Part shown: positions 776 to 46,500 of the stretch, piece by piece
Numbering within the stretch: the first letter of the stretch is position 1
Layout: every line of letters starts with the position of its first letter
DNA from: Verrucomicrobiia bacterium
GTDB taxonomy: Bacteria; Verrucomicrobiota; Verrucomicrobiia; Limisphaerales; UBA1319
Reading direction: 5' to 3'
Length of the DNA: 64,000 nt
Assembly (NCBI GenBank): GCA_963664225.1
Contig: OY760937.1
Span: 1,632,001 to 1,696,000 of the forward strand
Notes under the pieces: generated by a model
What the model saw: the letters and a program-made list of their open reading frames with translations, nothing else
The model's database searches: none
What the model was told of the DNA's origin: nothing
Program-made: the position numbers and the translations under genes

Positions 776-939
776 GGTTTTATCCTTATTATTGATCGAT
801 GGAAATGAACCTGCGGTCATTCAAATCACTACAAACAGTCCTCAACGGCCTGAGCCACTCTTCCAGCCAGAAACCGGTCTTCTCTCCGGTGTCGCCATGC
901 TGGTCATGTGAAAGAGAACCAAACGCATCGCGCGCGGTG

Positions 940-1557
940 TCAGGGTTCACGTTTCAGGATGAGTGGTGAGGATTGTCCCCACTTTCCAGTAAACACGAAC
1001 TTGCCCAACGGCTTTCGTTGCCTGGGCGTCGAGTCGCGTTCCTTCAAGGCCTCTGGGAGTTTGGCCGGATCCGCCTTGTATCCGATGGCGAGGGCCGTCC
1101 ACGCCTCAAAATGTTCCGGAATCTGGTAAAGTTCCCGCGCCTTGTCGGGGAGGATGCCAATCATCTGATGGACAGACAGGCCGCGTGCGGTTGCCTCCAC
1201 CAGAAGATTCCCGGCGGCCAGACCCAGATCATGAACAGCGGCCCGATTGTCCTTTTTGTTCTTTGCGAATTGCAGACTCACCACGCCCAGAACTAGCACT
1301 GGCGCGGCCTTCGCCCATGCCTGGTTTGCCTCCACAAGACAGCCAAGCATTCGCGCGAACTCCACAGGGTCCTCCCTGGTGGCAACCAGATAATTCCATG
1401 GCTGTTCGTTGTAAGAGGACGCCGCCCACCGGGCGGCTTCGAACAACGATCGAAGGTCCCCCTCCGGAACGGAACGATCGTCGAAACCGTAGGGGCTCCA
1501 CCGCTCCGAGAGAAGCTTGAGGATGGGATGGTCTGTCACTGCATTCTTGATGTTCAT
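940..1557 (-). CDS. Nitroreductase family protein
   Basis: ERWSPYGF, EAARWAASSYNEQPW, DLGLAAGNLLVEATARGL..HQMIG motifs. Start taken at MNIKNA. Confidence 0.85.
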   Translation of the reverse strand: MNIKNAVTDHPILKLLSERWSPYGFDDRSVPEGDLRSLFEAARWAASSYNEQPWNYLVATREDPVEFARMLGCLVEANQAWAKAAPVLVLGVVSLQFAKNKKDNRAAVHDLGLAAGNLLVEATARGLSVHQMIGILPDKARELYQIPEHFEAWTALAIGYKADPAKLPEALKERDSTPRQRKPLGKFVFTGKWGQSSPLILKREP

Positions 1558-1627
1558 ATTCTCGATTTTGATTTCACTGAGGCCACCATCGGAATGCTTT
1601 TGGAATGGGATGCACGCCAATCATGGC

Positions 1628-1813
1628 CTAAGCCTGATTTGTCTTCCGCCCGGAACCGCTCTTTTTGCCGCCGCCGCTGAGTTTGTTGACGGTGGCCCAT
1701 GCACGAGCTTCCGCGGTTTTCGTGTTGAGACCTTTTTTCTCGTAACCAGCTTCAATATGCGCGGCCTGGCGCTTCTGTTTATCGGTGTAACTGGATTTAT
1801 CGCCTTGAGGCAT
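1628..1813 (-). CDS. Small basic conserved protein (often labelled 'plasmid stabilization' or stress-type)
   Basis: MPQGDKSSYTDKQKRQAAHIEAGYEKKG...AEARAWATVNK.SGGGKKSGSGR is a recognisable small conserved family. Confidence 0.7.
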   Translation of the reverse strand: MPQGDKSSYTDKQKRQAAHIEAGYEKKGLNTKTAEARAWATVNKLSGGGKKSGSGRKTNQA

Positions 1814-2242
1814 TGGTGGTCCTTTCTCTTGGACGGAATAAGACGCCGTATTCTTTTCTTTCAAACGCTGCCGTTTAACAATTCATGAGTGGCACTCTTC
1901 ATTGACAGGTGGCCGACCGGACGGCACGCCCATGACCATCCTGCAACTGGTTTGGCGTCTGAATGGTTCCAGAACGTCCTCCCTTGGAAATCGCTTCCGT
2001 TGCGAACAGAATTTTCATCTTGGTCCAGCCAATACCTTGCGCCTTGGAATGGTCTTTCTCCATGGGGTGTAACCCTACCTCTTCCAACGATCGGCCAACG
2101 ATACTTCCTCCCGCGAATGAAGGTTTTATTACATCCCATCCAACCGCAGAACCTGTGATTTATCGGTTGGCGTTGCTTGACAGCCCGTTGGATGGGTCAG
2201 TCCCGAATGGCGCTTGGGCAGGCAATATACTGGTGACCTCTG

Positions 2243-3664
2243 TTACCTGAGTTGGGTTAAAATCACATTACTCTCGATATCCCGCCAAACTTTCTTCCCT
2301 CCCACAACCTCCGTTTTGGCGAGGTGCTTGAGATAATAGAGCGTTGGCTCCGCAATGTGCTGGTTATTGAGAAAAGGCTCGGTGTATTGGATGGCGGCAT
2401 ACTTGGCCTGAGCGATGTGGTGCTGTTGGCCCACGTGATCGTTCCAATCCACGCCCTCTGTCAGAAAACCGTGGAGGCCGTAATGGTGTTTTGCAATGGC
2501 GCGCAGGATGACCAGACCATTCATCTCGTAGCTCTGGCTTGCTTTCAGATCCCGCGAACGTGTGTCGGCGGCCGCCTCGAAATAGGCCAGCGCGGCCTCG
2601 GCATTTTCCCAGAGATAGGCGGTATCCCACGATTTTTCCATGTAGAGCAGGCCCTTGGTGGCCACTCCATTGCGATCATCGGTCATCTTGAACTCATCCA
2701 GGGCTTTCAGGCATTTATCATAAGCAAAAGTTCGGATTGCTTCGTCATTCAGCACCTTGGAAACCGCCAACAGGGTTCGAAATGCAACCGAAAGGGCCAC
2801 GTTCTCGCGCGGATCGTAGGTGTCGTGATTGATGCTGCCGAATATCCCGCCGGCCTTCATGAACACCGCCGTCTTCTCCCGCAGATTCGTTTTGTAATCC
2901 GCCAGACCCTGGGCCGTCAAAGCCGCTTGTAGTTGGAGAATAAAAAGCCCGTCCGCGGACGTTTGCCAGAACGGATCGTTGCCGCCGTCCGGGGATTTGA
3001 GCCAGAGTTTTCCTTCCGGCGTCACGCGGCGGGGAAACCAGCCATTGGTAACCGGTTCCACATGCCTATCGATCCAGCGCGAACATCGCAGGGCCGCCTG
3101 GCGCATGCGTTCGGCCCGTGAATCCGCGCCCAGGTCTCCCGCGAAACTGAGCAGTTGAAATCCGACCTTCGCCATCGACCCCGGGCAAAACCAATCCGAG
3201 TTATGCTTGTAGTTCAGGCACATTTTGCCCGTGGTGGTCTCGCGATACGCCCGAATCAGCCCGCTTTCCTCAATGAATCCCCCATCCAGCACATGGTCCA
3301 GAATCCCAAGGGCATTCGTTTGCCAGTCCTTCTTATCCAGATACGCGCCCAGAGAAAATATTTCCCACGCGCCCCCTGCCGCATTGGCCGCCCAACCTGG
3401 ACCTTCGAGATTCCCAAAATCATGCCAGCCCATGACCTTGCCCTCGGGATTCACAAAACTCGAAATGGAAACCAGGTGTCCGTTGGTGTCGCGTTGAAGT
3501 GTCTTCGTCAGCGTGAATCGGATGGAATCGTTGACCGAATCGCTGATCGTGTAACGCGGATTTTCGGGAACGTAAAATGCCTGCCTGGCCCACTCGGTAT
3601 CAGCAGCCCCTGCGCCGATCCCGCACAAACAAGCCCAGGCCCAGATAATCGATGCGTGCTTCAT
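2243..3664 (-). CDS. Secreted hypothetical protein, possibly (alpha/alpha)6-barrel glycosidase-like
   Basis: 473-aa ORF with N-terminal signal peptide and Trp/Tyr-rich helical segments. Function inferred only. Confidence 0.55.
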   Translation of the reverse strand: MKHASIIWAWACLCGIGAGAADTEWARQAFYVPENPRYTISDSVNDSIRFTLTKTLQRDTNGHLVSISSFVNPEGKVMGWHDFGNLEGPGWAANAAGGAWEIFSLGAYLDKKDWQTNALGILDHVLDGGFIEESGLIRAYRETTTGKMCLNYKHNSDWFCPGSMAKVGFQLLSFAGDLGADSRAERMRQAALRCSRWIDRHVEPVTNGWFPRRVTPEGKLWLKSPDGGNDPFWQTSADGLFILQLQAALTAQGLADYKTNLREKTAVFMKAGGIFGSINHDTYDPRENVALSVAFRTLLAVSKVLNDEAIRTFAYDKCLKALDEFKMTDDRNGVATKGLLYMEKSWDTAYLWENAEAALAYFEAAADTRSRDLKASQSYEMNGLVILRAIAKHHYGLHGFLTEGVDWNDHVGQQHHIAQAKYAAIQYTEPFLNNQHIAEPTLYYLKHLAKTEVVGGKKVWRDIESNVILTQLR

Positions 3665-3713
3665 AGACTTTCCGACTTTCTCATTCGAATTATTTTGAGG
3701 ATGGGCGCCGCGT

Positions 3714-4529
3714 TCATTTCAGGATTCCCGCCGCCAGCAGGGCCTTGCCCCAGATGACGTAGCCGGCCTCGGTGGGGTGAACTCCATCGGACATGATATC
3801 CCGGGATAACATGGCGTCCTTTGCGACGATCTGTTCCGAGATGTCCAGAAAACCAATCAGCGGTTTGCCGGTCAGTTGAGTTGCCAGAATCCTGTTCAAG
3901 GCGGTGATGTTCGTGCGGTAATAATCATCGGGTTTGAAGCCGCGCGGCAACACCCCCATGACAAGGATCCGGCTCTGCGGCGACTTTTTGTGAACGCGAT
4001 CGCAGATGGCGCCGATCGCTTCGGCAATTTCCGCGGGCGAGTTGGCTCGCGCGTTGCCGGTGCCCGTTAAATTATTGCTTCCAATATTCAGGACGACCAC
4101 CTTCGGATGCGTGCCGTCCATTTCGCCATGATCCAGCCGCCAAAGGACGTTTTGCGTCCGATCCCAACCAAATCCCATGTTCAAAACGCGATGCTCGCCG
4201 AAGGTCTCGGCCCAGGCCTTGGGACCGTTCTGCTGTCGGGAAATCGGCGGGCCGCCCCAGAAATGGGTGATCGAATCACCGATCATGACGATCTCGGGAT
4301 CGATGGTCTTCTGCTCCGCGAGTACCTGCGTGTGGCGTTCATCCCAGTTGTAAGAATCCTTTTCCAACCACGTAACGGGCACAAGGGCGCTGTTGGTGCC
4401 GGTCTGAACGGAAGATGGCGTGGCGGCTGGAGCCACATCCGCGCCCATCAAATGCCGACCTGACGCCACGGTCAGCAATCCGATCGCGAGAATCCATTTA
4501 AACCGGCCCACTTTGAAGTGCTTTTTCAT
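3714..4529 (-). CDS. GDSL/SGNH esterase (PAF-acetylhydrolase-like), secreted
   Basis: GDSIT, GFGWDRTQNVLWR, NIGSNN, DGVHP blocks. Start taken at MKKHFK (alternative 4544). Confidence 0.85.
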   Translation of the reverse strand: MKKHFKVGRFKWILAIGLLTVASGRHLMGADVAPAATPSSVQTGTNSALVPVTWLEKDSYNWDERHTQVLAEQKTIDPEIVMIGDSITHFWGGPPISRQQNGPKAWAETFGEHRVLNMGFGWDRTQNVLWRLDHGEMDGTHPKVVVLNIGSNNLTGTGNARANSPAEIAEAIGAICDRVHKKSPQSRILVMGVLPRGFKPDDYYRTNITALNRILATQLTGKPLIGFLDISEQIVAKDAMLSRDIMSDGVHPTEAGYVIWGKALLAAGILK

Positions 4530-4752
4530 ATTTGGATTTTCCATCAATCTGGCTCTTAAACGTTGAGATCGCATTTCCCCGGCAACACCCCTCCTGCCCA
4601 GGCAAGCCAAAGTGTGTTTCATTGTCCACTCCGATTTGCTAACTTGCAAACACAATACTGGCGGCACCCATTTAGTTTTAATAACAGGAATATTTTGTAG
4701 TTGGCAAAGCAGGCCAGCTCCCTTCTTGTCCCTCGAAATGCGGAAGACCGAC

Positions 4753-5967
4753 CTACCCCGAACGGCCACGTTTCCCGGAGATCCCCACCAACACCGCGCC
4801 GCAGGCGAACAGGATGCCGCAATAAACCATGGCGGCGTTGATTCCATAGGCCGACCACAGCAGGCCCACGACCACGCTCGACAGAAAATCACCCACGCCG
4901 TTGACCGTGGCCAGCATCCCGAACGCCATGCCATGCTGATTTTCGTCGGTCAATTCGGCGCATAAGGAATCCTCGAGCGTTTCCTCCACCGCCACGTAAA
5001 TGCCAGCCAGAGAGAAAATAACGGCCAAAGCCCATGGATTTCCCGGCAGAACGATCACCAATACCGCCATCACGAAGGCCAGCGCGTATCCCGCCGCAAG
5101 GAGCAGCCGTTTGTTCCATTGATCCGCCAGCCAGCCGCTCAGGTAGGAGCAACCGGCATAGAGCATGTTGTGCAGCACATACAATCCCACGGCCACGCTG
5201 GCCGCTTTTCCGGCACCCATGGAAGGGGTGAGCGTTTGCGCGGCCAGAAGGATCAACATGGAATGCGCAAAATCACCCGCGCCAAACAGGCCAACGGCCA
5301 CCAGAAACTTTTTATAAGGGCCGGGCAGGCCGCGCAGGCTGTCGCCAAATGAAATATGCGGCACGGGTTTGCGTTCCTTTTCCCGGACCGCAAACGCAAT
5401 CAACCCCGCCGCCGCGAGTCCCGGAATCAGTGTCAGGGCAAAGAGGGTCTGATAATTGTGGTTCAAGGCCCCGAGCAAAAAGAAGGCGGATATCGGTCCC
5501 ACAATCGCCCCGCAGGTGTCCATCATCCGCTCGAATCCAAAGGCGCGACCGTAGGACTCGCGCGTGACCGCCGCCGCGAGCAGGGCCTTGCGAACAGGGG
5601 TGCGCACGCCACGCCCCAACCACGCGACCGCGCGTGAGGCAAGAACATGCCAGGCGCTTGTGGCCAGACCGAAGGAAGCCGTGCCCAACGCGGTGACGAT
5701 GTAACCCAGGACCGCGATGGGTTTGCGCCGTGCCAGACGGTCGGTATAAAAACCCGACGCCATCTTCGCAACGCTCGACAATCCATCCGACACCCCCTCG
5801 ATCAATCCGAGCCATGCCGCCGACACCCCCAGCATGGCCAGATACGCGGGCAGCACGGACGTCGCAATTTCATGAGCCCAGTCGCTGAAAAGAGAGGCCA
5901 GCCCAATGCCCAGCACTGTGCGGTTGAGCCAGCGTTTGCCCGGTGGTTTTTCCCCTGCCCCATCCAT
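4753..5967 (-). CDS. MFS transporter
   Basis: About 12 hydrophobic segments; GFYTDRLARRK and GWLADQWNKR motif-A-like loops. Confidence 0.9.
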   Translation of the reverse strand: MDGAGEKPPGKRWLNRTVLGIGLASLFSDWAHEIATSVLPAYLAMLGVSAAWLGLIEGVSDGLSSVAKMASGFYTDRLARRKPIAVLGYIVTALGTASFGLATSAWHVLASRAVAWLGRGVRTPVRKALLAAAVTRESYGRAFGFERMMDTCGAIVGPISAFFLLGALNHNYQTLFALTLIPGLAAAGLIAFAVREKERKPVPHISFGDSLRGLPGPYKKFLVAVGLFGAGDFAHSMLILLAAQTLTPSMGAGKAASVAVGLYVLHNMLYAGCSYLSGWLADQWNKRLLLAAGYALAFVMAVLVIVLPGNPWALAVIFSLAGIYVAVEETLEDSLCAELTDENQHGMAFGMLATVNGVGDFLSSVVVGLLWSAYGINAAMVYCGILFACGAVLVGISGKRGRSG

Positions 5968-6150
5968 ATCAATTGACGGCTCAATATAGCAGCATGGTCA
6001 AGATGCGCCTTAAAATACGGTCAAAAACCATCAAAACCACGGTTGAATTGTTTCCGCGATCGGGCCATAATGACGCTCACTTCCAGACGAAGTTCGGTCC
6101 ACATGGACCGAAGTTGCGGGGAAGACCAAAATTCGCAAAAAAGGGATCGC

Positions 6151-6702
6151 ATGATTGGTTTAACCATAGGCACGATTGCGGTAATGGCCGCGATATCCAT
6201 CGTCAACGCCACTGCCGATGTTTCCTGGCGCACGAAACTCGAACAGGAACTTCCGCTGCTGGGCCATCGCAATTGGATCGTCATCGCCGATTCCGCCTAT
6301 CCCTGGCAGACCGCCCCGGGCATCGAAACCGTGTGGACCGGCGCATCGCAAACCGAGGTGGTCCGTGCCGTGCTGGATACCCTGGACAAGTCCGCCCATG
6401 TCAGGCCCATCATTTATACCGATGCGGAATTGAAGGCCGTTCCCGAAGCCGCAGCCAAAGGGGTGCAGGCCTACCGGGATGAGTTGGCCAAAATCCTTGC
6501 GGGCCGCGAGGTGTCAGTCGTGCCCCATGAACAGATTATTTCCAAACTCGACGAAGCGGGCAAAACGTTTCATGTCCTTCTCTTGAAAACCAAAATGACC
6601 ATTCCCTATACCTCGGTCTTTCTGCAACTCGATTGCAATTATTGGAGCGCGGAGGCCGAACGTGCTTTGCGTGAATCGCTCAAGGGAAACGCGAAACCCT
6701 GA
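6151..6702 (+). CDS. RbsD/FucU-like protein with signal peptide
   Basis: LGHRNWIVIADSAYP motif and C-terminal T.IPYTSVFLQL. Start taken at MIGLTIG. Confidence 0.7.
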   Translation: MIGLTIGTIAVMAAISIVNATADVSWRTKLEQELPLLGHRNWIVIADSAYPWQTAPGIETVWTGASQTEVVRAVLDTLDKSAHVRPIIYTDAELKAVPEAAAKGVQAYRDELAKILAGREVSVVPHEQIISKLDEAGKTFHVLLLKTKMTIPYTSVFLQLDCNYWSAEAERALRESLKGNAKP

Positions 6703-6795
6703 TTTTGCATGGCACCAGGCGCGAATCATGTCGGACAACTTTGTGAATCATAGAGCACCCTGAAAACCGTGCGCAGCATTTAACAAGGAATTGCC

Positions 6796-8166
6796 ATGGA
6801 TATACTGATGTTATCACGCATCCAGTTCGCCTTCACCATCGGCTTCCATTATATTTTCCCGCCGTTGAGCATCGGCCTGGGCGTGCTGCTGGTCTTGATC
6901 GAGGCCATGTGGCTGATCACGGGCAAACCCATTTTCCACCAGATGGGCCGATTCTGGACGAAGGTCTTCTCGCTCACATTCGCCATGGGCGTGGCCACGG
7001 GCATCGTGATGGAGTTCGAGTTTGGGACCAATTGGGCCACTTACTCGCGCTATGTGGGGGACGTTTTCGGCAGCGCACTGGCCGCTGAAGGCATTTTCGC
7101 CTTTTTCCTGGAATCCGGCTTCCTCGCGATCCTTCTGTTTGGGTGGGACAGGGTCCGACCCGGCGTGCATTTCTTTGCCACCTGCATGGTGTGCCTGGGC
7201 GCGCACTTCAGCGCCATCTGGATTGTGGTGGCCAATTCCTGGCAGCAAACACCGGCGGGTTATCACATCGTGGGCGAAGGATTATCCGCGCGCGCAGAAA
7301 TCACCGATTTCTGGGCCATGGTGTTCAACCCCTCCTCCATGGATCGCCTGTTCCACACCGTCTGTGGCGCGTGGCAGGCCGGGGCGTTCCTCATGGTCAG
7401 CGTCAGCGCATTTTATTTGCTCAAACGCCGCCATATCGAGTTTGCGCAAACGTCGCTGAAAACCGGTCTTGCCGTCGGCCTGGCTGCCTCTCTGCTCCAA
7501 TTGGTCTCCGGCCACGACTCCGCCGTGGGTGTCGCCAATAACCAACCCGCCAAACTGGCCGCCTTCGAAGGACAATACATCACGCAATCGAATGCGCCGC
7601 TTTCCTTGTTCGGCTGGGTGGATGAGAAGAATCAGCAGGTGCGTAATGGCGTCTCCATTCCCGGAATGCTCAGTTATCTGATTTATTTCGACACCACAAA
7701 AACAGTCGCGGGTCTGGACCAGACCAAGCCCGAAAACCGCCCGCCGGTCAACGCGGTCTTCCAATTCTACCATATCATGGTGGGCGTGGGCATGACCATG
7801 ATCGCCCTGACGCTGTTCGGCGCTTTCCTGTGGGCGCGTGGACAACTGTTCAAACACCGCTGGTATCTCATCCTGCTCGTGTTCTCGGTGCTCGGCCCTC
7901 AAATTGCCAACCAGGCGGGGTGGTTCGCCGCCGAGGTCGGACGCCAACCCTGGATTGTCTATGGCCTCTTGCGCACGTCGGACGCCCTGTCGGTTGTTGT
8001 AAAAGCGAATGAAATTGTCGCCTCGCTGATCCTGTTTGCCGTGATCTATGCCCTTTTATTTGCGGCGTTCATTTACCTGTTGGACGACAAAATCAAACAC
8101 GGCCCGGACGATGCGGACCTGATTCCATCGGGCAAACTTGCCCTACCCTTAAGAGGTGACCATTGA
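6796..8166 (+). CDS. cydA: Cytochrome bd ubiquinol oxidase subunit I
   Basis: [40 protein letters not shown] motifs. Confidence 0.97.
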
Positions 8167-9188
8167 ATGCCCTGGATCTGAATACCATCTGGTTTGTCCT
8201 CATCGGCGTACTCTTTGGCGGATACGCCATTTTGGACGGTTTTGACCTTGGGGTCGGCGCCATTCATCTTTTCACGAAAACGGATGAGGAACGGCGCATC
8301 ATGATCAATTCCATCGGGCCGGTGTGGGATGGCAACGAAGTCTGGCTGGTCACGGGCGGCGGCGCCCTCTTTGCAGCGTTTCCCATGGCCTATGCCACGG
8401 TCTTCAGCGGTTTCTATCTCGCATTCGTTTTGCTGCTCTTTGCCCTGATCTTCCGCGCGGTGGCGATTGAATTTCGCAGCAAACAGCCGCATCGCTGGTG
8501 GCGGCAGATGTGGGACATCAGCTTTGCATGCGGCAGCATCCTCTCGAGTTTTCTGATCGGCGTGGCCATGGGCAACATTGCCTGGGGCATCCCCCTGGAT
8601 TCGCACCATGAATTTGCGGGCACTTTTCTGGGACTGCTGCATCCCTACGCCGTCCTGTTGGGAATCACCACAGTGGCCTTGTTCATGATGCACGGCGCGA
8701 TTTATACCGTGTTAAAAACCGAAGGCGCGCTCCACGACAAAGTCCGAGGATGGGTTAACAACTGCATCATTTTCTTCATCATCTGCTACGCCATCACGAC
8801 CATGGCCACCCTGCTCTATCTGCCCCACATGACGACGCAGGTGCGTAGCCATCCCGTCCTTTTTCTGATTCCGCTGGCGACGATGCTGGCCATTGCCAAC
8901 ATCCCGCGCGCATTCCATCACGGATGGGACTTCCAGGCGTTCCTCTCCTCCTCAGCCGCCATGGCTGGCTTGATGATGCTTTTCGGTGTGGAGATGTTTC
9001 CCAACCTGGTTTTCAGCAACCCGACCGTCGGCAACAGCCTCACCGTTTACAATGCCGCTTCCTCCCACAAAACGCTCTCCATCATGCTGACCATCGCCAT
9101 GATCGGCATCCCGATCGTCCTCGCCTACACCATGAGCATCTATTGGATTTTCAGGGGCAAGGTCAAACTCGACCGAATGAGTTACTGA
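8163..9188 (+). CDS. cydB: Cytochrome bd ubiquinol oxidase subunit II
   Basis: [20 protein letters not shown] motifs; overlaps the cydA stop. Confidence 0.97.
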
Positions 9189-11089
9189 GCAAACCAGGCT
9201 GCGACAGGGCTGCCGGGCGCCAGTCGATAATCGTGATTTGCGGCGTCGATGAATTTGGGATCTGCCACCACGGCGTGGGCCTCCAATCCCCTGGTTTGCA
9301 TGAAGGCCTTGAATTCGCTCTCCCCAATATTTTTCTCGCCCCACAACACGTAAGGTTTCTCCTCCGGTAGGGCGAGGCTCCCGCCGAGCCGTTCCGGTTT
9401 ATCGCTCCTCAGCACGCAGGGTTTTCCCTCCTGATGCCAGCAGTTCTCGTCCAGTGTCAGCGCGGCGGTCCAATCCCGCCCATGCAGGCGCATCAGTGAA
9501 TCCACGGAATTGGCGAAAATGTTGTGGCGGATGACGACATTGGTGGTGGCCGCAGTATTGTCGTAAAACATCAAATGGCGGCCATTGGGATCAGGACGCT
9601 GGCGATGTCCCCAGCCGTAACCGGCATCCACACAAATGTTGTTTTCGAACACAATGTTGCGGGTCACGCTGGCGGCGCCGCGATTCCAATATTCGAAGGA
9701 ATACTCACTGTTCCAGATCACGTTGCGCCGGTAGATGATGTTTTCCTCGACATTGGTGCCACTGCCCTGGTTGGTGAGGGCGGCATCATAAATCTCCCAA
9801 ATGCGGCAACCTTCCACCAGCGAATCGCTCGCGGCCGCCCAAAATTCAATGCCATTGCCGTAACGCACAGGCGCGCCATCTGAGCCGGCATTTTGATGCC
9901 CGCCCCCGATGTACGAAATATCGCAATTGCGGACCGTGATGTGTCGGGTGCTCCCGCCGCCGATCCCATGTGCCGCACCGTAGCGGAGGTCCAGATTCTC
10001 GTAGGCCACGAAACCGCAGTTGCCCTGGTCGATGATGTGGCGGCACAAGGCCAGCTCGATGCTTTGATGCAGCGTGGCGGGATTCGCGTCGCTGCGCAGT
10101 GTGACCTGCCAGGTCCGCGCGTCATAATGGAAATCGCCGGGCTCGCGCAAATCCGCCTCCCGCCACTTCTTCACACCGGTGAGCGCGCCATGGTCGAAGA
10201 TGATGTTGCCGACATCCGCATCGAGCGGTCTTTCCTGGGAGCATTGCACTTTTTCAAGCCGCATCGAACGGAGCAAGAGTGTGCAGTCCCCGGGAAGCGC
10301 TCCGCCCAGAAACAGAGTAAGGCGGGCGTCGGACGCGGACTCGCTCCCGTGAAAACGGACGGTGCGCCCGGTCCAATTGGTTCCGATGGTTGTATTGGTG
10401 GCGTAAGTGCTGGCGTAGGCCGTCCAGGGAGAGCCGTTTTTCATCAGTGAAAAGGAAGCCGGAGCGAACGGACGCGTGGCACGGGCTTCAAAGCGGAGAA
10501 GGTAGTAATCGCCCGCTTTGACCGACAAGCCCCCAATCGAAAGTTGAATGTGATTGGCGCTCGAACCCGGCTTGCGCCCCTCCAACCGCAGAATCCTCCC
10601 CTGATCTTGCGAGGAATCCCCGACCGCCAAAGTGCAATCCGCGCCACCCTCATGATACACCCCCCATCGATCCGCGGGCAGTTCCACCGTTTCACCCGTC
10701 GAATCAAACCTCAGGGGCGTTGTGATCCAGAGCCCCGGGCCCGCTGGCTGCCAATCGCCTGTATGATCCATCGCAGCCGAACCCAGAAAGACGGGTTTGG
10801 GGCCGGAACCAAAGGCGCCGTAGGTGATGACGCCGTTCGTCGATCCACTATGCGGCCGAAGCTGTCCACGCCAGGTCTGGCCGCGACGGAACAGCACCTG
10901 ATCGGCGGGGGCCAGCGTGGCGCGATTCACCTGGGCCAGGGATTGCCAGGCATTGTCTTCGCTCAATCCATTGCGGTCGTCGTGACCGCGAGTGGCATCG
11001 ACAAAAAACGTCCGCGCGGGTGCCGTCGATGCGGCAGTGAAGAACAAACCGGCTCCAAGGAGCGAAGCCCAAATCAAACGAATGGTCAT
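9182..11089 (-). CDS. Secreted right-handed beta-helix protein with inserted CBM4/9-like domain
   Basis: FFVDATRGHDDRNGLS..AWQSL..VN...DQVLFRRGQTWRG start, parallel beta-helix repeats, C-terminal DPKFID..DYRL.PGSP. Confidence 0.7.
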   Translation of the reverse strand: MTIRLIWASLLGAGLFFTAASTAPARTFFVDATRGHDDRNGLSEDNAWQSLAQVNRATLAPADQVLFRRGQTWRGQLRPHSGSTNGVITYGAFGSGPKPVFLGSAAMDHTGDWQPAGPGLWITTPLRFDSTGETVELPADRWGVYHEGGADCTLAVGDSSQDQGRILRLEGRKPGSSANHIQLSIGGLSVKAGDYYLLRFEARATRPFAPASFSLMKNGSPWTAYASTYATNTTIGTNWTGRTVRFHGSESASDARLTLFLGGALPGDCTLLLRSMRLEKVQCSQERPLDADVGNIIFDHGALTGVKKWREADLREPGDFHYDARTWQVTLRSDANPATLHQSIELALCRHIIDQGNCGFVAYENLDLRYGAAHGIGGGSTRHITVRNCDISYIGGGHQNAGSDGAPVRYGNGIEFWAAASDSLVEGCRIWEIYDAALTNQGSGTNVEENIIYRRNVIWNSEYSFEYWNRGAASVTRNIVFENNICVDAGYGWGHRQRPDPNGRHLMFYDNTAATTNVVIRHNIFANSVDSLMRLHGRDWTAALTLDENCWHQEGKPCVLRSDKPERLGGSLALPEEKPYVLWGEKNIGESEFKAFMQTRGLEAHAVVADPKFIDAANHDYRLAPGSPVAAWFAQ

Positions 11090-24243: not shown

Positions 24244-25293
24244 ATGGAACAAGCGGCTTTTTGCAAAAAGCGGACACGTCATGGATGGCAAAAAGCCGGG
24301 TGTTTCGGCATGCCTTGCGCCCCAAACAAAAACATTGCAACCCGGTATGGAAGGCGTATATTTAGGCCAACTCCTACGGTTATGTGCTTGTCAGTGTCCA
24401 AAACGGCTTTAGAAGAGGCTTGTGACCTCAATGGACGAACTGTAGGCGCTCGCTTCGAACCTCTGGATCGCCTGATCTCTGCAAAAACGACCCCATATTC
24501 AGACGTTCGTTCACCGCAAATTATTCAGCGACTGGGTTTTACATTGATCGAAATGCTGGTCGTCATTGCCATCATCTCCATCCTGGCAACCTTGCTCCTT
24601 CCGACTTTGAGCCGCGCCAGGGACGGTGCACACATCGTCCATTGCAAAAATAACCAACGTCAGTTGGTCATGGCCATGTTCATGTATTCGGAAGATAACG
24701 ACGATTGGCTTCCGTTGCCCGGCTATTGCCACAATCATCCGGCCAATTGGGTCTATCGCGAACTCGATGCCAACAGAAACGTCCTGACCAATGGCAGACC
24801 GCTTCATGCCGAGTCCGGCTCGATATTCTCCTATGTCACCAGCCAGAAGCGCGTCCTGCCGTTCGATCGCAATAACAAATCGAGCTATCCCATTTACCGC
24901 TGCCCGGATACAGGCACCTACGGAGAAGCCACCCGTGTGACGTATAGCATGAATGTTTTCATTCAAAGCGATACCGCCAAACACGATCCCGATGCGGAAC
25001 CCGCCAGCACCGCCCGCAGTGCCGTCGCCAACCCGGATCAGAAGGTTCTGCTCGTGGACGACGATCCCAAGGGAGTGGTTCTTGGAACCTTCATTGCCGT
25101 CAATTTCAAGCCGGCCATCCAGGGAAAACTCGATACCTATCACGACCGTCCATTTGAATTCCCCCATAACGATCGCGGCAATATCTCATTCATGGATGGC
25201 CATATCGCCACCATTAAAATCGACAACTTTCAGCAAATGGTCGGACCGTGGAATATCAGGGTCAAAACCTACTTCGACCCCCCGTTTCGTTGA
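24244..25293 (+). CDS. Prepilin-type N-terminal cleavage/methylation protein with H-X9-DG motif
   Basis: GFTLIEMLVVIAIISILATLLLP..SRAR...C.NNQRQL and HNDRGNISFMDGH. The true start is probably downstream of 24244. Confidence 0.85.
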   Translation: MEQAAFCKKRTRHGWQKAGCFGMPCAPNKNIATRYGRRIFRPTPTVMCLSVSKTALEEACDLNGRTVGARFEPLDRLISAKTTPYSDVRSPQIIQRLGFTLIEMLVVIAIISILATLLLPTLSRARDGAHIVHCKNNQRQLVMAMFMYSEDNDDWLPLPGYCHNHPANWVYRELDANRNVLTNGRPLHAESGSIFSYVTSQKRVLPFDRNNKSSYPIYRCPDTGTYGEATRVTYSMNVFIQSDTAKHDPDAEPASTARSAVANPDQKVLLVDDDPKGVVLGTFIAVNFKPAIQGKLDTYHDRPFEFPHNDRGNISFMDGHIATIKIDNFQQMVGPWNIRVKTYFDPPFR

Positions 25294-25393
25294 AACTTGC
25301 CTCGGTCCACGCGACCGGGCGGCTTGATCCGCGCTTTAAAAATTCAACGTAAGGGAATGACGTTCAAAGCATTCCCTTTTTTTCTGCGGTTAA

Positions 25394-27368
25394 GTAGAGT
25401 AGGCGAAATGGACGGATTGAATGGCCGTGGCCAATGACCGTCGCATTTCGCCCCTCATCGAACCGGACAGGCGGTTTTCCCGCATCCGGCTCTCCGGGGA
25501 TCATACGTTGCATCGCTTCGACGTCATCGTTTCCATGCCGCATATTCCGGCATTTGGTATAAACCATAACGCTCATAGAGATCCTCCTTGGGGTATGTGG
25601 ACCATTGCGCCCGACTACATCCGTGTTTGCGCCACAACCATCGTTGTAACTTGCTGCTGACGTATTCGTTCATCTGGCCCATCACCTTGGTGCTGTTCCC
25701 GTAGTGAAAGTAACCCTTCCAACCTTTGAGTTTCTTGTTGAGCTCGGGAATCACCTCTCCGATATCACGCCATAGCGTGCTTCGGTTGAGTTTCTCCCGA
25801 ATCCCGTCTCGAAACTTCTTCTGGCTCTTGGGATGGGGTTCCACATGCGGATATTTCCATTTCCCCTTCCCCTGTCGCATTGTTAGCGCGAATCCCAAGA
25901 ATTTGATGCCATCCTGGCGGAGGTCCACCAAGCGGGTCTTCTTCTCGTTGAGCACTAACTCGCGTTGCTTCAGCCATCGTTCCAGTCGTTCCATCAGTTC
26001 CCGTCCCTGCCCCGGCTGTCCGAGTATCACGAAATCATCCGCGTATCTCACCATCACGGGTTTGAGTTCGCAGCGTTCGTTGACTTCCCAATCCAACTGG
26101 TTGAGGTATGCATTGGCTAAAATCGGCGATACAACCCCGCCTTGCGGAGTCCCCCGTCGATTCTGACCTTGCCCCCCCTTTGTCCCGCCTTTCCCTGTGT
26201 CGCTTTGCGGTTCATTCACGGGCGCGCGCAGCCATCCTGCGATCAGCTTGAGAATTGTTCCATCGCTGACCCGCTTGGCCACTATGCGCAACAAACGCCT
26301 GTGGGGAATGCTGTCAAAATACCCGCTTAAGTCCGCGTCTATAACTTCGACGCGTCCTGTCAGCGTAGCCTTCTTGATCGCCTCCATTGCTTGGTGGGCA
26401 TTGCGTTTGGGATGATAGGCGTAACTGTTCGGATGACTATCGGCTTCCAGAATCGGCAGCAATACAATCACCACCGCTGTCTGCACCACCCGGTCTTTCA
26501 CTGTCGGGATGCCCAGGGGTCGCAGCTTCCCGTCTCCTTTTGGTATATACACACGCTTCACCGGGCTTGGCCGATACTTCTTCGTGCGTAACTCCTCCAG
26601 CAGTTGGTTCCGCCATTGGTCCCAGGCTTCGTCGCTGGCAAGATAGACGTCGCATGTCTGCCCGTCGATCCCAGCCGCGCCATTGTTGTGCGCCACGGAG
26701 GCCATTGCCGTTTCCAGCACGTCCTTCCGCAGCAGTTCTCCGTAGAGGCTGTAAAACCGATACTTCGGCTCAGCCTTGGCTTTGCAATATAGCGCTCGCT
26801 GCAGCTTTTGAACTTTTATCGGGGTTGTTATCCGTTGAAAAAGTGTTTCCACTCCCTCAAGGCCATCTCCCTGTCCCTCGCTGTTTTGATTCGCTTCGAT
26901 CCAAGTGCCTTCCCTTGGCTCCGCCGGGGTTTTGGTCGCCCCAGCTTCTTCGCTACTATGGAAGACTCCGACTTCTCTGGCTGCCCGTGCGGCCTCGGAG
27001 GGTGTTCCTCCTTGCACCGGCGGTTGAGGCTTTATCGCCCCGCCTCCAGAGATCTCCCAGCTTACCTTGGTTTCCCTTCCTGTCGTGTCGCCCTCGCTGA
27101 CTCCGCCGGAATCAACAGCGCCCATTTGACGATTTGATGACGCCGCGTTTCTGCCTTCGCCGTTCGGGTAGCGGCTCGGCTTACCGGTTATTTCGGTTTC
27201 GGAGCTCATTTGATGAGGTTTACTTTCGTTACGACCCGACAGTTCTTTCAGCGTCCCGCTTGTGGTTCGGCCTCACGGCCTCGTCCCGGACGCTGCATTT
27301 CGGTCGTGAACCGTCTAATTCGACCGGCGGGACTTTCACCCACGAGGCTACCAATTTCACTGGCGCAC
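25394..27368 (-). mobile_element. Group II intron 1 (complete, 1975 nt)
   Basis: 5' GTGCG at 27368; domain V GAGCCGGATGCGGGAAAACCGCCTGTCCGGTTCG; 3' end CTACTCTAC at 25394; EBS1 ACCCGA (27164-27169) complementary to the 5' exon end TCGGGT. Confidence 0.92.
25524..26852 (-). CDS. ltrA: Group II intron reverse transcriptase/maturase, no HNH domain
   Basis: [43 protein letters not shown], domain X. The frame is open to 27209; start placed at GTG 26852 (uncertain). Confidence 0.93.
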   Translation of the reverse strand: METLFQRITTPIKVQKLQRALYCKAKAEPKYRFYSLYGELLRKDVLETAMASVAHNNGAAGIDGQTCDVYLASDEAWDQWRNQLLEELRTKKYRPSPVKRVYIPKGDGKLRPLGIPTVKDRVVQTAVVIVLLPILEADSHPNSYAYHPKRNAHQAMEAIKKATLTGRVEVIDADLSGYFDSIPHRRLLRIVAKRVSDGTILKLIAGWLRAPVNEPQSDTGKGGTKGGQGQNRRGTPQGGVVSPILANAYLNQLDWEVNERCELKPVMVRYADDFVILGQPGQGRELMERLERWLKQRELVLNEKKTRLVDLRQDGIKFLGFALTMRQGKGKWKYPHVEPHPKSQKKFRDGIREKLNRSTLWRDIGEVIPELNKKLKGWKGYFHYGNSTKVMGQMNEYVSSKLQRWLWRKHGCSRAQWSTYPKEDLYERYGLYQMPEYAAWKR

Positions 27369-27532
27369 ACCCGAAATCCGAAATAAGAATGGTCAAGATG
27401 ATACAATGCTTTGAGACAGCCATGATTTGCAATCGGCGAAGGTGTATTAAATCAATACTCCACAGCCGGTTTTAAACCATGGATGGCCAAATGATTGCGT
27501 CAGATGGGCCGTTCCTATTTCGGATTTCGGGT
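27369..27532. repeat. Element bounded by perfect 17-bp inverted repeats; left arm is the target of intron 1
   Basis: ACCCGAAATCCGAAATA at 27369-27385 and TATTTCGGATTTCGGGT at 27516-27532. Confidence 0.8.
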
Positions 27533-27578
27533 TAAATCCAATCCAATTAGTGATCAGCGGTTTTGTTCCTTCATTCGC

Positions 27579-28370
27579 AAAACCCACGCGGTGGCCACCT
27601 CCCAAACCATCCAATCGCTCCAGAACCGTCCAATACTCCTCCCTCTCCATCGCCAGATGGAGAAGGGCGGGACGAGAATTCCCCGAACCGAAAAGATCGC
27701 GCATTGAACCCCTGAACCAGGTATTTATGCATGTTGCTTGTAATGGAAGACATCGCACTTTTGGGTTCATGGGTAGGGCGTGCGTCAATAAGTTTTCCAT
27801 TTCGCATATTTCGTGGTTAATTTCCTTTTTTCTTTTCTTGTCAATCATCCATTCTCCACTCGCCAACCCCACGCGGCGGCACCTCCAAACCACCCACTTG
27901 GTCATATGTCAATTGTCCCCTCGCCAACACGGTGCGGCCGTATCCTCCAAACCGTGCAAAAAAACCAGGACTCGCAATACTCCTCCCTCTCCGCTTTGGG
28001 GAGAGGGACGGGGTGAGGTGGCTTTTCGTATCCCATCATTCGCATCCAGGGTGTTCGTTTTTTCGATGCCTCAATTGTCCATTTTCTCCCTCATCCGTGC
28101 CATCCGTGATAACAGTGGTTAAAAATCCTGCTCATCCTGCTTATCCATGTTGATATTTCTTCACCCACTTCTTTCCATGTAACTTGTAATGAAAGACATC
28201 CCACTTTGGGTTCATGGGGAGGGCGGTCGTCCTTTCGTATCTGACTTTTGCCAGACCCTCAATCGGCGCCCGGCCATTCCCGAAACTCTTGCTATCTTTG
28301 TTTCGTATATACTCACATGCCTGTTTTAAGGACTTTTTCGCTTGCCGAAGGTTTTTGTCATGCACCCAAA
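27579..28370. repeat. Mosaic of REP-like repeats, homologous to 42475-42981
   Basis: Shared blocks include CGCGCATTGAACCCCTGAACC..TATTTATGCATGTTGCTTGTAA and ATCCGTGCCATCCGTGAT...TTCACCCACTTCTTTCCATGTAACTTG. Confidence 0.75.
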
Positions 28371-28429
28371 ATGTCCTTCGCCTCGGAATATTGATTGCCA
28401 GTTTCGCCAAATCGTTCCAACCTTGCTGA

Positions 28430-29299
28430 ATGCGAACAGTGACTTCGACGTCGGCCATGCAAAAACTGGCCTTGGGTTGGAAACGCGCGGGACGCCGCAT
28501 CGGCTTTGTGCCGACCATGGGTTATTTGCACGCCGGTCACATCAGCCTCGTGGAAAAAGCCCGCCAGAAGGTGGGCCCGGATGGGATCGTCGTCGTAAGC
28601 ATTTACGTCAATCCCACCCAATTCTCCCCGCAGGAGGACCTGGCCAAGTACCCCCGGGACCTGGCGCGCGACCAAAAACTCTGCCGTGCCGCCGGAACGG
28701 ACCTCATTTTCGCTCCCGCCAATGACCAGATGTATCCACCGGTTGGTCGGGTGCCCTACAGCACCTATGTGGCCGAGGAATTCTTATCCCAGGTCATGGA
28801 AGGCAAGGCCCGTCCGGTGCATTTCCGGGGAGTAACCACGGTCGTGGCCAAACTATTCAACATCGTCCTGCCGGATGTGGCCGTCTTTGGGGCCAAGGAT
28901 TATCAACAGGCGGCCATTATTACGAAAATGGTCCGCGACCTGAATTTCCCCATCCAGATCATCGTCGCCCCCACCTTGCGGGAACCCGACGGTCTGGCCA
29001 TGAGTTCGCGCAATAAATACCTGTCCCCGTCCGAAAGATCCCAGGCCCTTTCCCTGTCCCAGGCCTTGCAACAGGCCCGCGCCGCAGTCCTTAAATCCCC
29101 GGCTGGCATTCCTGTGGAGCGCCTTCGAAAGCATCTGCTTGCCGATTTCGCCAGACACCCCGCCGCCCGCGTCGATTACATCGAATTCTTCGATCCCGAA
29201 ACCCTGCAACCCGCCCGCAGCATCCGAAAAGGTGTTCACATGGCCATGGCGGTGTATATTGGCAAAACGCGCCTGATCGACAACGGCACACTCGCCTGA
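28430..29299 (+). CDS. panC: Pantoate-beta-alanine ligase
   Basis: FVPTMGYLHAGH, SIYVNPTQF, FGAKDYQQ, DGLAMSSRN, RLIDN. Confidence 0.97.
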   Translation: MRTVTSTSAMQKLALGWKRAGRRIGFVPTMGYLHAGHISLVEKARQKVGPDGIVVVSIYVNPTQFSPQEDLAKYPRDLARDQKLCRAAGTDLIFAPANDQMYPPVGRVPYSTYVAEEFLSQVMEGKARPVHFRGVTTVVAKLFNIVLPDVAVFGAKDYQQAAIITKMVRDLNFPIQIIVAPTLREPDGLAMSSRNKYLSPSERSQALSLSQALQQARAAVLKSPAGIPVERLRKHLLADFARHPAARVDYIEFFDPETLQPARSIRKGVHMAMAVYIGKTRLIDNGTLA

Positions 29300-44216: not shown

Positions 44217-44533
44217 TAAGTTTCGCTCCGCTCCTGTGTCCGTCAAATCGGGGCAACCTCATCCCTCCCAGCCCCAGCGGGGCGACATGTTTATCGGCCA
44301 TCCAAACGGATTCCCCAATTCCACCGCAGCTCGTCCGGTTACTGGCCCCCGGGCAACCCGGAACGGGTTGCATCACTCAGCCCCGGGTTGCCCGCCGGGG
44401 GCTACCCGGGGTCCTCGTCCCTCAGAATCCCCAACGCTGTAGGCGTTGAATCATATCCCATCCTGTCCACCCATGCATAAATGTCTTTTCTGCCATTATG
44501 CGTTCTTTTCCTTTGTGGTCTTTGAGCTCTCTG

Positions 44534-46500
44534 GAAAGCGCCAAGCAAAGTTTGGTGGCTGTAGTCAAATGCAACGAGTTGATCATGATAACAGGTCGAG
44601 AGTCATGTAGCCGCGTCCAAAGCGTGGTGGGGCGACCCGCCGCGTTCAAGCTGGGCAAGGCAAAGGTGCGAGCCGTAGCGTCTGCGAACTCGATTCAGCC
44701 TCGTTACTCTAAAGCGGGAGTGGCCAGCCTGTCAGAGAAGGTGAAGCCAGCATTGGAGGGGAAGATTCGACCAGAAGCACCCTTCAAGCTCCCCGGGGTC
44801 AGAGGAGACAGCGCGTACCCAAACAACCATCAGGAACTTGGGAGACCCTGCCTGAACCTCGGTCCCGAGACCGGGGAACGCACGTCGGGAAGCCATAACC
44901 GGCGGGCGCTCAGGATCAGGGAGTCGGACGGGCTCATAGTAGCTGCGAAATCCCGGTCAAGCCGGGATGGAGCCAAGGAGCCCTGGCCAGAGTCAAGCCG
45001 AGTCAGAGGGAACTGGAGCTGATTGAAGTGAAAACTTCCACGACAGAACAAGCGGTGGAGGAACTTTCCTTTCGGGAAGCGATCCTGCCGCCCAAACTTC
45101 AGGAACTGAGACAGAAGCTGGGCCGGAAAGCCAAACAAGAGAAGCGATTCCGCTTCTACAGCCTCTACGGACTGGTGTTCCTGCCGGAGGTGCTGCAAGC
45201 GGCATGGGCTGCGGTGCGGCGCAATGGCGGGGCACCGGGCGTGGACGGAGTGAGCATCGACCAGATCACCGCGACACCTGAAAGTGAAGCGGCGTTTCTG
45301 GGAACGATCAGGCAGAGCCTGCGGGACAAGACCTACCGCGCCCAACCGGTGCGGCGGGTCTATATACCGAAGGCAAACGGAAAACTGCGGCCACTGGGAA
45401 TCCCGACGGTGAAGGACCGGGTGGTGCAAGCGGCGGTATTGCTGATTCTGGAGCCCATCTTCGAAGCGGACTTTGAGGATTGTTCCTACGGGTTTCGGCC
45501 CGGACGGTCGGCGCACGACGCATTGCAAACCCTCCAAAAACACCTGAAGGAGGGGAAGAACGCAGTGTATGACGCGGACCTGTCCGGATACTTCGACAGC
45601 ATCCCTCACGACAAGCTTCTGGCTTGCGTGCGGATGCGCGTGGTGGACGGCGCGGTTTTGGGACTCATCCGGCAATGGCTGGCGGCCCCCGTGGTGGAAC
45701 CTCCCCAAGGAGAGGAACCGCCTCGGGTCAACCGCCGGGATCGGGGCACGCCGCAAGGCGGAGTCCTCTCTCCGTTACTGGCCAACATATACCTGCACTG
45801 GTTCGACCACCTGTTCCAAAGGGCGGATGGACCGGCGCACTGGGCGGATGCCCGGCTCGTTCGCTATGCGGACGACTTTGTGGTCATGGCCCGGTATATG
45901 GGTCCCAAGCTGCGAGCATGGATTGAGGAAAAGCTGGAGGGCTGGCTCACACTGGAAATCAACCGGGACAAAACCCGGGTGGTCAACGTCAACGAGCAAA
46001 GCCTGGACTTTCTGGGCTACACCTTCCGGTATGACCGGGATCAATTCGGCAGGGCGTTTCACTACCTCAACCTGTGTCCTTCGGGCAAGGCGATGGAACG
46101 GGAGAGGCAGGCGTTGCGACTGCTGATCAATGCCGGGCAAAGTCATACGCCGCTGCCGGAGTTGATCGGGCGGATCAACCGTCATTTGCGGGGTTGGAGC
46201 AACTACTTCAACCTCGGACAACCCCGACGGGCCTTTCGCCAGATCAACCACTTCGTGAGAGTGCGGCTGGGCAAACACCTGCGACGACGAAGCCAGCGGG
46301 GCTGGCGCGTCCGTCAGGGAGTCACGCTCTATGCCCATCTCGAAACACTGGGTCTGAAGGCATTGTGAATGCAATCTGGAAAAGACGACTCTGGCGAAAG
46401 CCGGATGTGGGAAATCTGCATGTCCGGTTTGACGAGGGAGAGGTGAGCGGCGGTCATTGGCCTTTGCGCCTTTCATCCCGTGCTCTCCTCTCTACTCTAC
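44534..46500 (+). mobile_element. Group II intron 2 (complete, 1967 nt)
   Basis: Boundaries fixed by uninterrupted repeat copies (GAGCTCTCTG|CGGTTGA); domain V AAAGCCGGATGTGGGAAATCTGCATGTCCGGTTT; 3' CTACTCTAC; EBS1 CAGAGA at 44733-44738. Confidence 0.92.
45028..46368 (+). CDS. ltrA: Group II intron reverse transcriptase/maturase, no HNH domain
   Basis: [47 protein letters not shown], domain X. Confidence 0.95.

Follow-up and report, generated by a model that had tools for sequence, protein, structure and literature searches.

The DNA considered here is a stretch of 64,000 nucleotides (hereafter the window; positions 1632001–1696000 of contig OY760937.1, assembly GCA_963664225.1) from a Verrucomicrobiia bacterium, and it carries a group II intron, here called intron 1, that is inserted at the tip of a short inverted-repeat transposable element. 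Intron 1 is probably an autonomous IIB-like intron which lacks the endonuclease domain (En-less) and which uses retrohoming to multiply, its landing sites being the outer tips of a single transposon family. This family would consist of a 1534-bp insertion sequence (IS) of the IS1380 family and a 164-bp miniature inverted-repeat transposable element (MITE). The anatomy of the intron, its copy number, the identity of its targets, the complementarity and covariation between exon-binding sites (EBS) in the intron and intron-binding sites (IBS) in the exon, the order of events and the strand polarity of the insertions could all be read directly. The genome searched was the single contig of 5.78 Mb to which the window belongs; the features of the window are collected in Table 1.

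Copies of Intron 1 and Their Target

Genome-wide, BLAST located 19 copies of intron 1, every one 100% identical over 1975 nt. All 19 are preceded by TCGGA[T/G]TTCGGGT, while the 3' exon opens with TAAA in 10 copies and with TTAA in nine, and each 3' flank is unique. Thirteen introns are found at MITE ends, eight of them on the arm that reads tcTTATTTCGG... (arm A) and five on the arm that reads tcCTATTTCGG... (arm B). Four are found at ends of the 1534-bp IS1380-family element (three right, one left). The remaining two, at 2,065,436 and 3,974,269, are solo introns with just 13–16 nt of the repeat tip upstream, and one of these borders on a truncated copy of a small repeat from another family. 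The motif itself is abundant. Its 13-nt core is present 51 times in the genome, 19 of these sites being occupied, and the 15-mer TTTCGGATTTCGGGT is present 40 times vs. 0.009 expected from base composition. An earlier note on the window had suggested that the intron uses an extragenic repeat as a multicopy target; the abundance of the motif, its presence before 19/19 introns and the location of 17 of the 19 at the ends of one transposon family all support this suggestion.

The copies of intron 1 are 100% identical and those of the MITE 92–100%, which points to a recent burst of the intron. Intron 1 presumably splices and remains mobile, as retrohoming activity is suggested by 19 identical copies occupying cognate sites. 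In an assembly of a public sequencing run (X1) a contig starting from a unique flank extends 22 nt into the 3' end of the intron, and the contig of intron 1 has a depth about 14 times that of the flank. Among the contigs of four public runs, which end at repeats, neither a junction bypassing the intron nor ligated exons appeared.

Ribozyme and Intron-Encoded Protein

The 5' end of intron 1, GTGCG at 27368–27364 (minus strand), conforms to the conserved GUGYG, and the 3' end at 25394 reads ...CCTACTCTAC. The Rfam family RF02005 (group-II-D1D4-6) matches 27091–27336 on the same strand with 54.9 bits against a gathering score of 49. Domain V, GAGCCGGAUGCGG...CCGGUUC, is of the AGC type, and domain VI shows the CCUAC context of the bulged A near the 3' end. 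Without its open reading frame (ORF) the ribozyme measures about 650 nt. Judged by these sequence features, intron 1 is an IIB-like group II intron composed of a ribozyme and a reverse transcriptase (RT)/maturase. Two other assignments were tried and rejected: class C (group IIC) on account of the 12-nt EBS2, the 6–7-nt EBS1 and the best Rfam family (D1D4-6), and bacterial ORF class D on account of the C-terminal motif LX3AX3PXLF[V/A]HW, as given for this class in PMC4615759, which a regular-expression search found to be absent from the intron 1 protein.

The open frame of the protein (P0001) matches the Pfam families RVT_1 at residues 222–441 (1.8e-34) and GIIM at residues 464–536 (1e-13), scores 356 bits against NCBIfam TIGR04416 (cut-off 300), and has an intact YADD at residue 389 according to a motif check. 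A DNA-binding/endonuclease (D/En) domain was not found: Pfam gave no HNH match, and about 25 aa remain past GIIM (domain X). The true start of the protein is probably near residue 118 of the listed frame, because the protein of a second intron in the window (intron 2), which is 42% identical, aligns from there. As in the window intron, in 6/6 relatives with 70–78% DNA identity (such as L001–L004 and L027, treated below) the protein frame is open far upstream of domain IV, and this upstream frame begins at about nt 13–161 of the intron and spans EBS2, EBS1 and domains II–III. The relatives have a conserved ATG at about nt 160 of the intron, and the next in-frame ATG falls inside the RT domain. 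The open frame upstream of domain IV may thus encode an N-terminal extension of 118–160 aa, which we list as a candidate only.

Recognition of the Exon

The EBS1 sequence ACCCGA, at 27169–27164 on the minus strand, complements TCGGGT, the final six nucleotides of the 5' exon; pairing reaches 7 nt when the next A is counted (ACCCGAA, 27169–27163). Upstream of it the EBS2 loop AAACCGAAATAA (27199–27188) complements exon positions -18 to -7 at 11 of 12 positions with an A/A mismatch at -9, and within this loop CCGAAATAA complements the exon sequence TTATTTCGG. Folding of domain I, which the earlier note had named as a check, places EBS1 in a terminal loop and leaves the EBS2 tract unpaired, both in the Rfam alignment and with RNAalifold. 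The note had read ACCCGA in a GCCG/CGGC hairpin as the complement of TCGGGT, and both the sequence and the Rfam alignment agree. It had also placed EBS2 upstream of EBS1, and here the location holds in the form of the 12-nt loop, while the alternative tract that it named, TCCGAAA, overlaps a stem of the Rfam alignment and was dismissed. The 5' exon reads ...TTATTTCGGATTTCGGGT, and splicing at the window site is predicted to give the junction ...ATTTCGGGT joined to TTAACCGCAG. Natural target sites vary at exon positions -8/-9 and -14 to -18. For EBS3 a candidate, the A following the stem that ends in GCUG, was tried; it fitted L004 (+1 A, U in intron) and failed in L027.

Scans of genomes and metagenomes, which had one contig in common, yielded eight distinct related introns with 65–79% protein identity. 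RNAalifold on nine related sequences predicted a consensus of 80 pairs, compensatory changes being present in 24, and in the EBS1 hairpin the stems are invariant and the loop is hypervariable. The pairing of IBS1 with EBS1 could be scored in the seven introns that have a 5' exon (L003 and L029 come without one). It extends over 7/7 positions in five, i.e., the window intron, L001 (TTCAGGT/ACCTGAA), L002 (TTCAGGA/TCCTGAA), L004 (TGGATGC/GCATCCA), and L017 (TTACGGC/GCCGTAA), and over 6/7 positions in L028 and L027, five of those in L027 being contiguous from the splice site. That the loop covaries with the 5' exon among relatives agrees with the proposal that EBS1–IBS1 pairing sets the target. 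The exon flanks of the RT homologues were also put forward for inspection by the note, which would have taken unrelated genic sites as a refutation; this is not a valid test. None of the related introns examined carries the MITE motif at its flank; they reside at other sites, each matching its own EBS1 loop (L002 lies within an open frame of 278 codons in antisense orientation, and L027 is apparently intergenic). Such differing sites are what one would expect of retargeted introns and have no bearing on the homing proposed for intron 1, because the relatives carry different EBS1 loops with matching sites.

The Transposon Family

The element in the window had been described as an inverted-repeat element of which one arm is occupied and the other is an empty target. 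The 17-bp inverted repeat (27369–27385 and 27516–27532) is indeed perfect, and the second target, identical to the occupied one and empty, has 27532 as its last position, the next letter being T. The element can now be defined more closely as a 164-bp MITE, and its parent, the IS1380-family element, serves as a target as well. A longer, imperfect palindrome with 64-nt arms of 70% complementarity has the 17-bp repeat as its tip, and the MITE DNA folds as a hairpin (-35.1 kcal/mol, z = -5.75). There are 19 full-length MITE copies (92–100% identical to the window copy), three that are split by IS insertions, one that is truncated, and two short remnants. The unit is short and dispersed, has no ORF, has terminal inverted repeats and target duplications, and has a parent IS with matching ends. 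The parent is present in five copies that are 100% identical; its 473-aa product scores 227.2 bits against NF033539 (IS1380 family; cut-off 180) and 95.7 bits against PF13701 (DDE_Tnp_1_4). The IS ends read ACCCGAACTCCGA... and the MITE ends ACCCGAAATCCGA, and because these terminal repeats resemble each other the 164-bp unit is best read as a MITE of the IS1380-family element, by which it would be mobilized.

Members of the IS1380 family have ends beginning with CC and a duplication of 4–5 bp. In this genome two readings of the element ends are possible, either CCCG...CGGG with TTWAA (in one case TTAA) or, nearly as well, ACCCG...CGGGT with TWA. The IS1380-family element has entered the central TTAAAT of a MITE twice, in opposite orientations, and both of these IS copies later gained intron 1. 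Another MITE contains an inserted 1858-bp repeat (264642–266499), of which there are five other copies, 99.8–100% identical.

Strand Polarity and the Empty Arm

In no case does an element carry introns at both of its ends (P = 0.008, taking 16 hits placed at random among the 42 ends of 21 two-ended elements). The strand on which the introns are found changes in long arcs, plus at 0.045–0.95 Mb, minus at 1.66–2.19 Mb and plus at 2.99–5.61 Mb, and on the circular map the six minus-strand copies form one uninterrupted run (P = 6.6e-4 for as few as two arcs). Occupancy is 19/26 among targets on the strand in local use and 0/25 among those on the other strand (p = 1.7e-8, where the arcs were defined post hoc from the introns themselves). 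In all 13 copies for which |GC skew|, computed over ±150 kb, reaches 0.028 or more, the G-rich strand is the sense strand of the intron. The six minus-strand copies are all surrounded by negative ORF strand bias; along the genome this bias is negative at 1.3–2.9 Mb and positive past 3.2 Mb. Two rRNA operons, both on the plus strand, are located at 3.99 Mb. The dnaA gene is found at 2.9906 Mb, 4 kb from the first plus-strand intron after the switch from minus to plus. Replication as the cause of the polarity fits the arcs, the GC skew and the gene-strand bias. The opposite arm is probably empty owing to a non-permissive strand, rather than to the intron not having got there yet: one arm would be filled and the identical arm empty because only the site on the lagging-strand template is usable by an En-less intron.

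A 14.6-kb inverted repeat (5778330–5783426 plus 1–9461 vs. 1579467–1593991), with copies 99.7–99.9% identical, brackets a segment of 1.58 Mb. If the segment at 0–1.58 Mb were flipped, GC skew, intron polarity and dnaA together would give two nearly equal replichores. Both the GC skew and the intron polarity of this segment look inverted relative to a replichore map centered on dnaA, and such an inversion could be a recent event, a flip-flop between two forms, or a choice made in assembly. Along the contig about 3.4 Mb (from 3.7 through 5.78 to 1.3 Mb) have a strongly positive GC skew, and in the other 2.4 Mb the skew is about zero, with no switch of sign, and the cumulative skew does not close but ends at +111,000 G-C. 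The orientation of tRNA genes gave no usable strand bias.

The absence of doubly occupied elements could also be accounted for without replication. Double occupancy would create a perfect 2-kb inverted repeat with its halves 164 bp apart, and long inverted repeats are unstable in bacteria, so that such a configuration might be unstable or lethal and the choice of strand unrelated to the fork. The lack of any element filled at both ends (P = 0.008) is what this explanation calls for, but it leaves unexplained the megabase-long arcs (P = 6.6e-4) and the agreement with GC skew, and we consider it unlikely as the sole cause; selection against palindromes may act on top of the strand bias. Still less probable is that the polarity reflects transcription, i.e., that the intron inserts or persists only where read-through from a neighboring gene transcribes it, genes being strand-biased in each arc. 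The sign of the ORF bias does equal the intron strand at 6/6 minus-strand copies and 9/13 plus-strand copies (it is negative at three of the others and zero at one), and expression may need read-through as a scan of the MITE arms gave no promoter-like site. However, the ORF bias is weak around most copies (|bias| ≤ 0.1), the genes that flank intron 1 in the window (24244–25293 and 28430–29299) are both on the opposite, plus strand, and no upstream gene is evident there on the strand of the intron.

A number of points weigh against the main explanation, retrohoming of intron 1 into transposon tips with the strand chosen at the fork. Symmetric replichores are obtained only with the assumed flip of the 0–1.58 Mb segment. 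Between 1.7 and 3.7 Mb, a region that is home to 6/19 copies, there is hardly any GC skew; for five minus-strand copies the skew of the bin is weakly positive (0.000 to +0.013), and origin and terminus lack firm positions. Clusters of DnaA boxes (TTATCCACA, at most one mismatch) were considered as origin candidates and rejected, the best of them, at 2,892,523 and 783,097, looking coding or repeat-like and not being AT-rich. Between the plus-strand copy at 2,986,270 and the 3' end of dnaA (itself on the minus strand) there are 2.3 kb, and this copy is maybe on the wrong side of the origin. Intron 2, which is also En-less, shows no such polarity, as 2/4 copies fit. A promoter scan of the MITE arms did not find a sigma-70-like or other promoter-like site. 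Finally, EBS2–IBS2 pairing is just 3–7 bp in L001, L002, L004, L017, L027, and L028, and since the relatives pair this weakly the EBS2 assignment rests on the 11/12 match of the window intron.

Order of Insertion

Outside each element end the nucleotides are TAA or TTA, and in occupied elements the intron-side copy of the duplication lies beyond the intron; deletion of the intron in silico restores the duplication beside the element in 17/17 occupied elements. Sixteen of the 17 fit a 3-bp duplication TWA, and for the element at 5610955/5611118 the sole fit is TTAA, with CCCG...CGGG as its ends. With the start of the element taken as CC, every duplication is 4–5 bp (TTWAA or TTAA) and the intron is located one nucleotide outside the element, within the duplication. 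As removal of the intron restores the duplication in every case, the intron arrived after the transposon and leaves it intact. It is barely conceivable that the association is the reverse, with IS and MITE inserting beside existing introns or with the intron traveling inside a composite transposon: both transposons have been active recently (five IS copies 100% identical, IS inserted twice into a MITE center), but the intron has to be taken out before the element is flanked by the duplication (17/17), the intron is outside the terminal repeats, its own EBS loops complement the repeat, and the unique 3' flanks together with the use of both MITE arms and both IS ends exclude carriage by the transposon as well as insertion beside introns.

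How Intron 1 May Spread

Retrohoming into transposon tips could proceed as follows. The intron RNA would base-pair with the whole terminal inverted repeat, EBS1 with exon positions -1 to -6 (or -7) and EBS2 with positions -7 to -18, and integration would take place immediately ahead of T[A/T]AA in the target duplication. This position is at the last nucleotide of the element or, if the end is drawn differently, one nucleotide farther out. The transposon would stay intact, and every new insertion of IS or MITE would yield two homing sites on opposite strands. With an En-less protein only the site that can be primed at the fork, that on the lagging-strand template, would be used.

It is tempting to join these elements in a wider reading, in which the intron is an obligate hyperparasite of the act of transposon insertion rather than of the transposon. 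We regard this as a tentative proposal that could well turn out to be wrong in one or other of its parts. It supposes that the 18-nt guide formed by EBS1 and EBS2 covers the full terminal repeat, with integration inside TTWAA and one nucleotide outside the element; that IS and MITE stay functional, each transposition making two fresh sites of which the lagging-template one is used; that the occupied ends may accordingly be taken as a fossil record of fork direction; and that the 0–1.58 Mb segment would have flipped since the intron burst, or have been flipped in the assembly.

Comparison with Known Introns

Homing to transposon ends is known behavior, and intron 1 is a clear new example of it beside RmInt2 of Sinorhizobium. 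RmInt2 homes into both inverted repeats of ISRm17 (PMC4615759, PMC5894124). The En-less introns RmInt1 and RmInt2 reverse-splice into single-stranded DNA at the replication fork and prefer the lagging-strand template (PMC5894124, PMC4615759), a bias that was demonstrated for RmInt2 in LEAD/LAG plasmid assays (PMC4615759, PMC5894124). By using both ISRm17 repeats RmInt2 always has one site on the lagging-strand template (PMC5894124, PMC4615759). As far as these accounts go, intron 1 resembles RmInt2 in its En-less RT/maturase, in having multiple identical copies per genome, in using an IS terminal repeat as target with two opposite-strand sites per element, in a bias toward one replication strand, which is probable for intron 1, and in tolerating IBS2 mismatches. 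It differs in that the class D C-terminal motif is absent and in that the IS belongs to the IS1380 family. The main reservoir here is a MITE (13/19 copies), and there are 19 copies vs. seven. RmInt2 is described as inserting "within" the repeats, whereas intron 1 is found at the outermost tip or in the target duplication. In addition, the strand bias of intron 1 is deduced from genome polarity, that of RmInt2 from a plasmid assay. RmInt1 of S. meliloti is likewise an En-less IIB intron that colonizes a multicopy IS (ISRm2011-2, IS630 family) with a preference for the lagging-strand template (PMC5894124). Its target is however within ISRm2011-2, and according to the same source insertion blocks the spread of the IS (PMC5894124), whereas the transposon targeted by intron 1 stays intact.

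Group IIC introns are similar to intron 1 in their intergenic, hairpin-associated, multicopy sites and En-less proteins. They insert after terminator or attC hairpins, at a fixed distance from the stem-loop, and recognize this DNA structure. They are described as lacking EBS2 and part of EBS1 (PMC3753933), whereas intron 1 has an EBS1 of 6–7 nt and an EBS2 of 12 nt, matches Rfam D1D4-6 and has a domain V of the AGC type. Groups IIE and IIF comprise small IIB-like ribozymes of 450–700 nt without ORF (Nagy et al., 2013; PMC3753933), and intron 1 is like them, by description, in its ribozyme of about 650 nt, in the location of EBS1 and EBS2 in domain Id, and in pairing sites directly upstream of the splice site.

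A literature search on group II introns with MITEs, repetitive extragenic palindromic (REP) sequences or IS1380, which covered few subscription journals, found no paper on homing to MITE tips. While the current understanding of group II introns is unchanged by the finding, the genome offers a clean natural experiment: its 51 targets are nearly identical and occur in either orientation at the same loci; 19 of them are filled and none on the other strand. The data support replication-coupled retrohoming of En-less group II introns beyond the rhizobial model and show that a MITE family can serve as a renewable, harmless landing pad. The fully defined 18-nt target rule of an En-less intron makes intron 1 a potential targetron, and its insertions might serve to mark replichore polarity and recent inversions where, as over 2 Mb of this genome, GC skew is uninformative.

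Additional Observations

Among the relatives, L017 (G034:C102:13087–13781, minus strand), from a genome of the same order (G034), is without an ORF and about 695 nt long, with domains I–III joined to domains V/VI. The 1996-nt metagenome contig L029 is circularly permuted, with the 3' end CCTACTCTAC fused immediately to the 5' GTGCGCC; possible causes are a cycle in the assembly, an intron circle, or a head-to-tail tandem, as reported for RmInt2. In 40 other genomes, drafts from which repeats are often unassembled, no near-identical intron 1 was found (the best matches were partial, with 68–71% identity), and the MITE gave one weak match of 37 nt and none in a genome of the same genus (93% complete, 230 contigs).

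Intron 2 has four copies in the genome, at 1676540 (plus), 2331450 (minus), 5161419 (plus), and 5606090 (minus), which are 99–100% identical. Comparison of the four places its 5' boundary directly before TGGAAAGCGCC, without GUGYG there; the 5' flanks have a TGAG motif in common and the 3' flanks begin with [C/T]GG.

Table 1. Position and strand of features in the window, numbered from its first nucleotide.
Feature	Position	Strand	Remarks
Group II intron 1, complete	25394–27368	minus	1975 nt, from 5' GTGCG to 3' CTAC; flank comparison of 19 copies
Domains V and VI of intron 1	25394–25494	minus	RF00029, 49.3 bits (gathering score 40), full model 1–77
Open frame of intron 1 protein (P0001)	25524–27209	minus	561 aa as listed
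EBS1 hairpin, GCCG-CUACCCGAA-CGGC	27159–27175	minus	9-nt loop; Rfam structure alignment
EBS2, internal loop AAACCGAAAUAA	27188–27199	minus	12 nt; unpaired in Rfam model and RNAalifold
Occupied target (5' exon), TTATTTCGGATT-TCGGGT	27369–27386	minus	IBS2 27386–27375, IBS1 27374–27369
MITE	27369–27532		164 bp, long imperfect palindrome; 162 bp (27370–27531) if start taken as CC
Unoccupied target, opposite arm	27515–27533	plus	cTATTTCGGATTTCGGGT, then T
Left target-site duplication	25390–25393	plus	TTAA, then A of the element; adjoins MITE after intron removal
Right copy of target-site duplication	27532–27536		
Terminator-like hairpin and T-run, AAGGGAATG...CATTCCCTTTTTTT	25349–25387	plus	read from sequence; upstream gene 24244–25293
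Intron 2	44532–46499	plus	RF02005, 70.4 bits; protein 45028–46368 (plus), En-less

The MITE and intron 1 of the window are intergenic, located just past the terminator-like hairpin of gene 24244–25293. The terminator scan did not list this hairpin, the loop of which exceeds the limit of the scan. No tandem repeats were found at 27300–28600. Other small dispersed repeats are present at 27550–28400 of the window and at 3973700–3974260 of the genome, and a repeat family of about 150 bp that contains ...TCGTCATTAATAATTCCGATCCACTCCCGCC... has at least five copies. Contigs from the public runs show skips and back-joins between 27576 and 28372.

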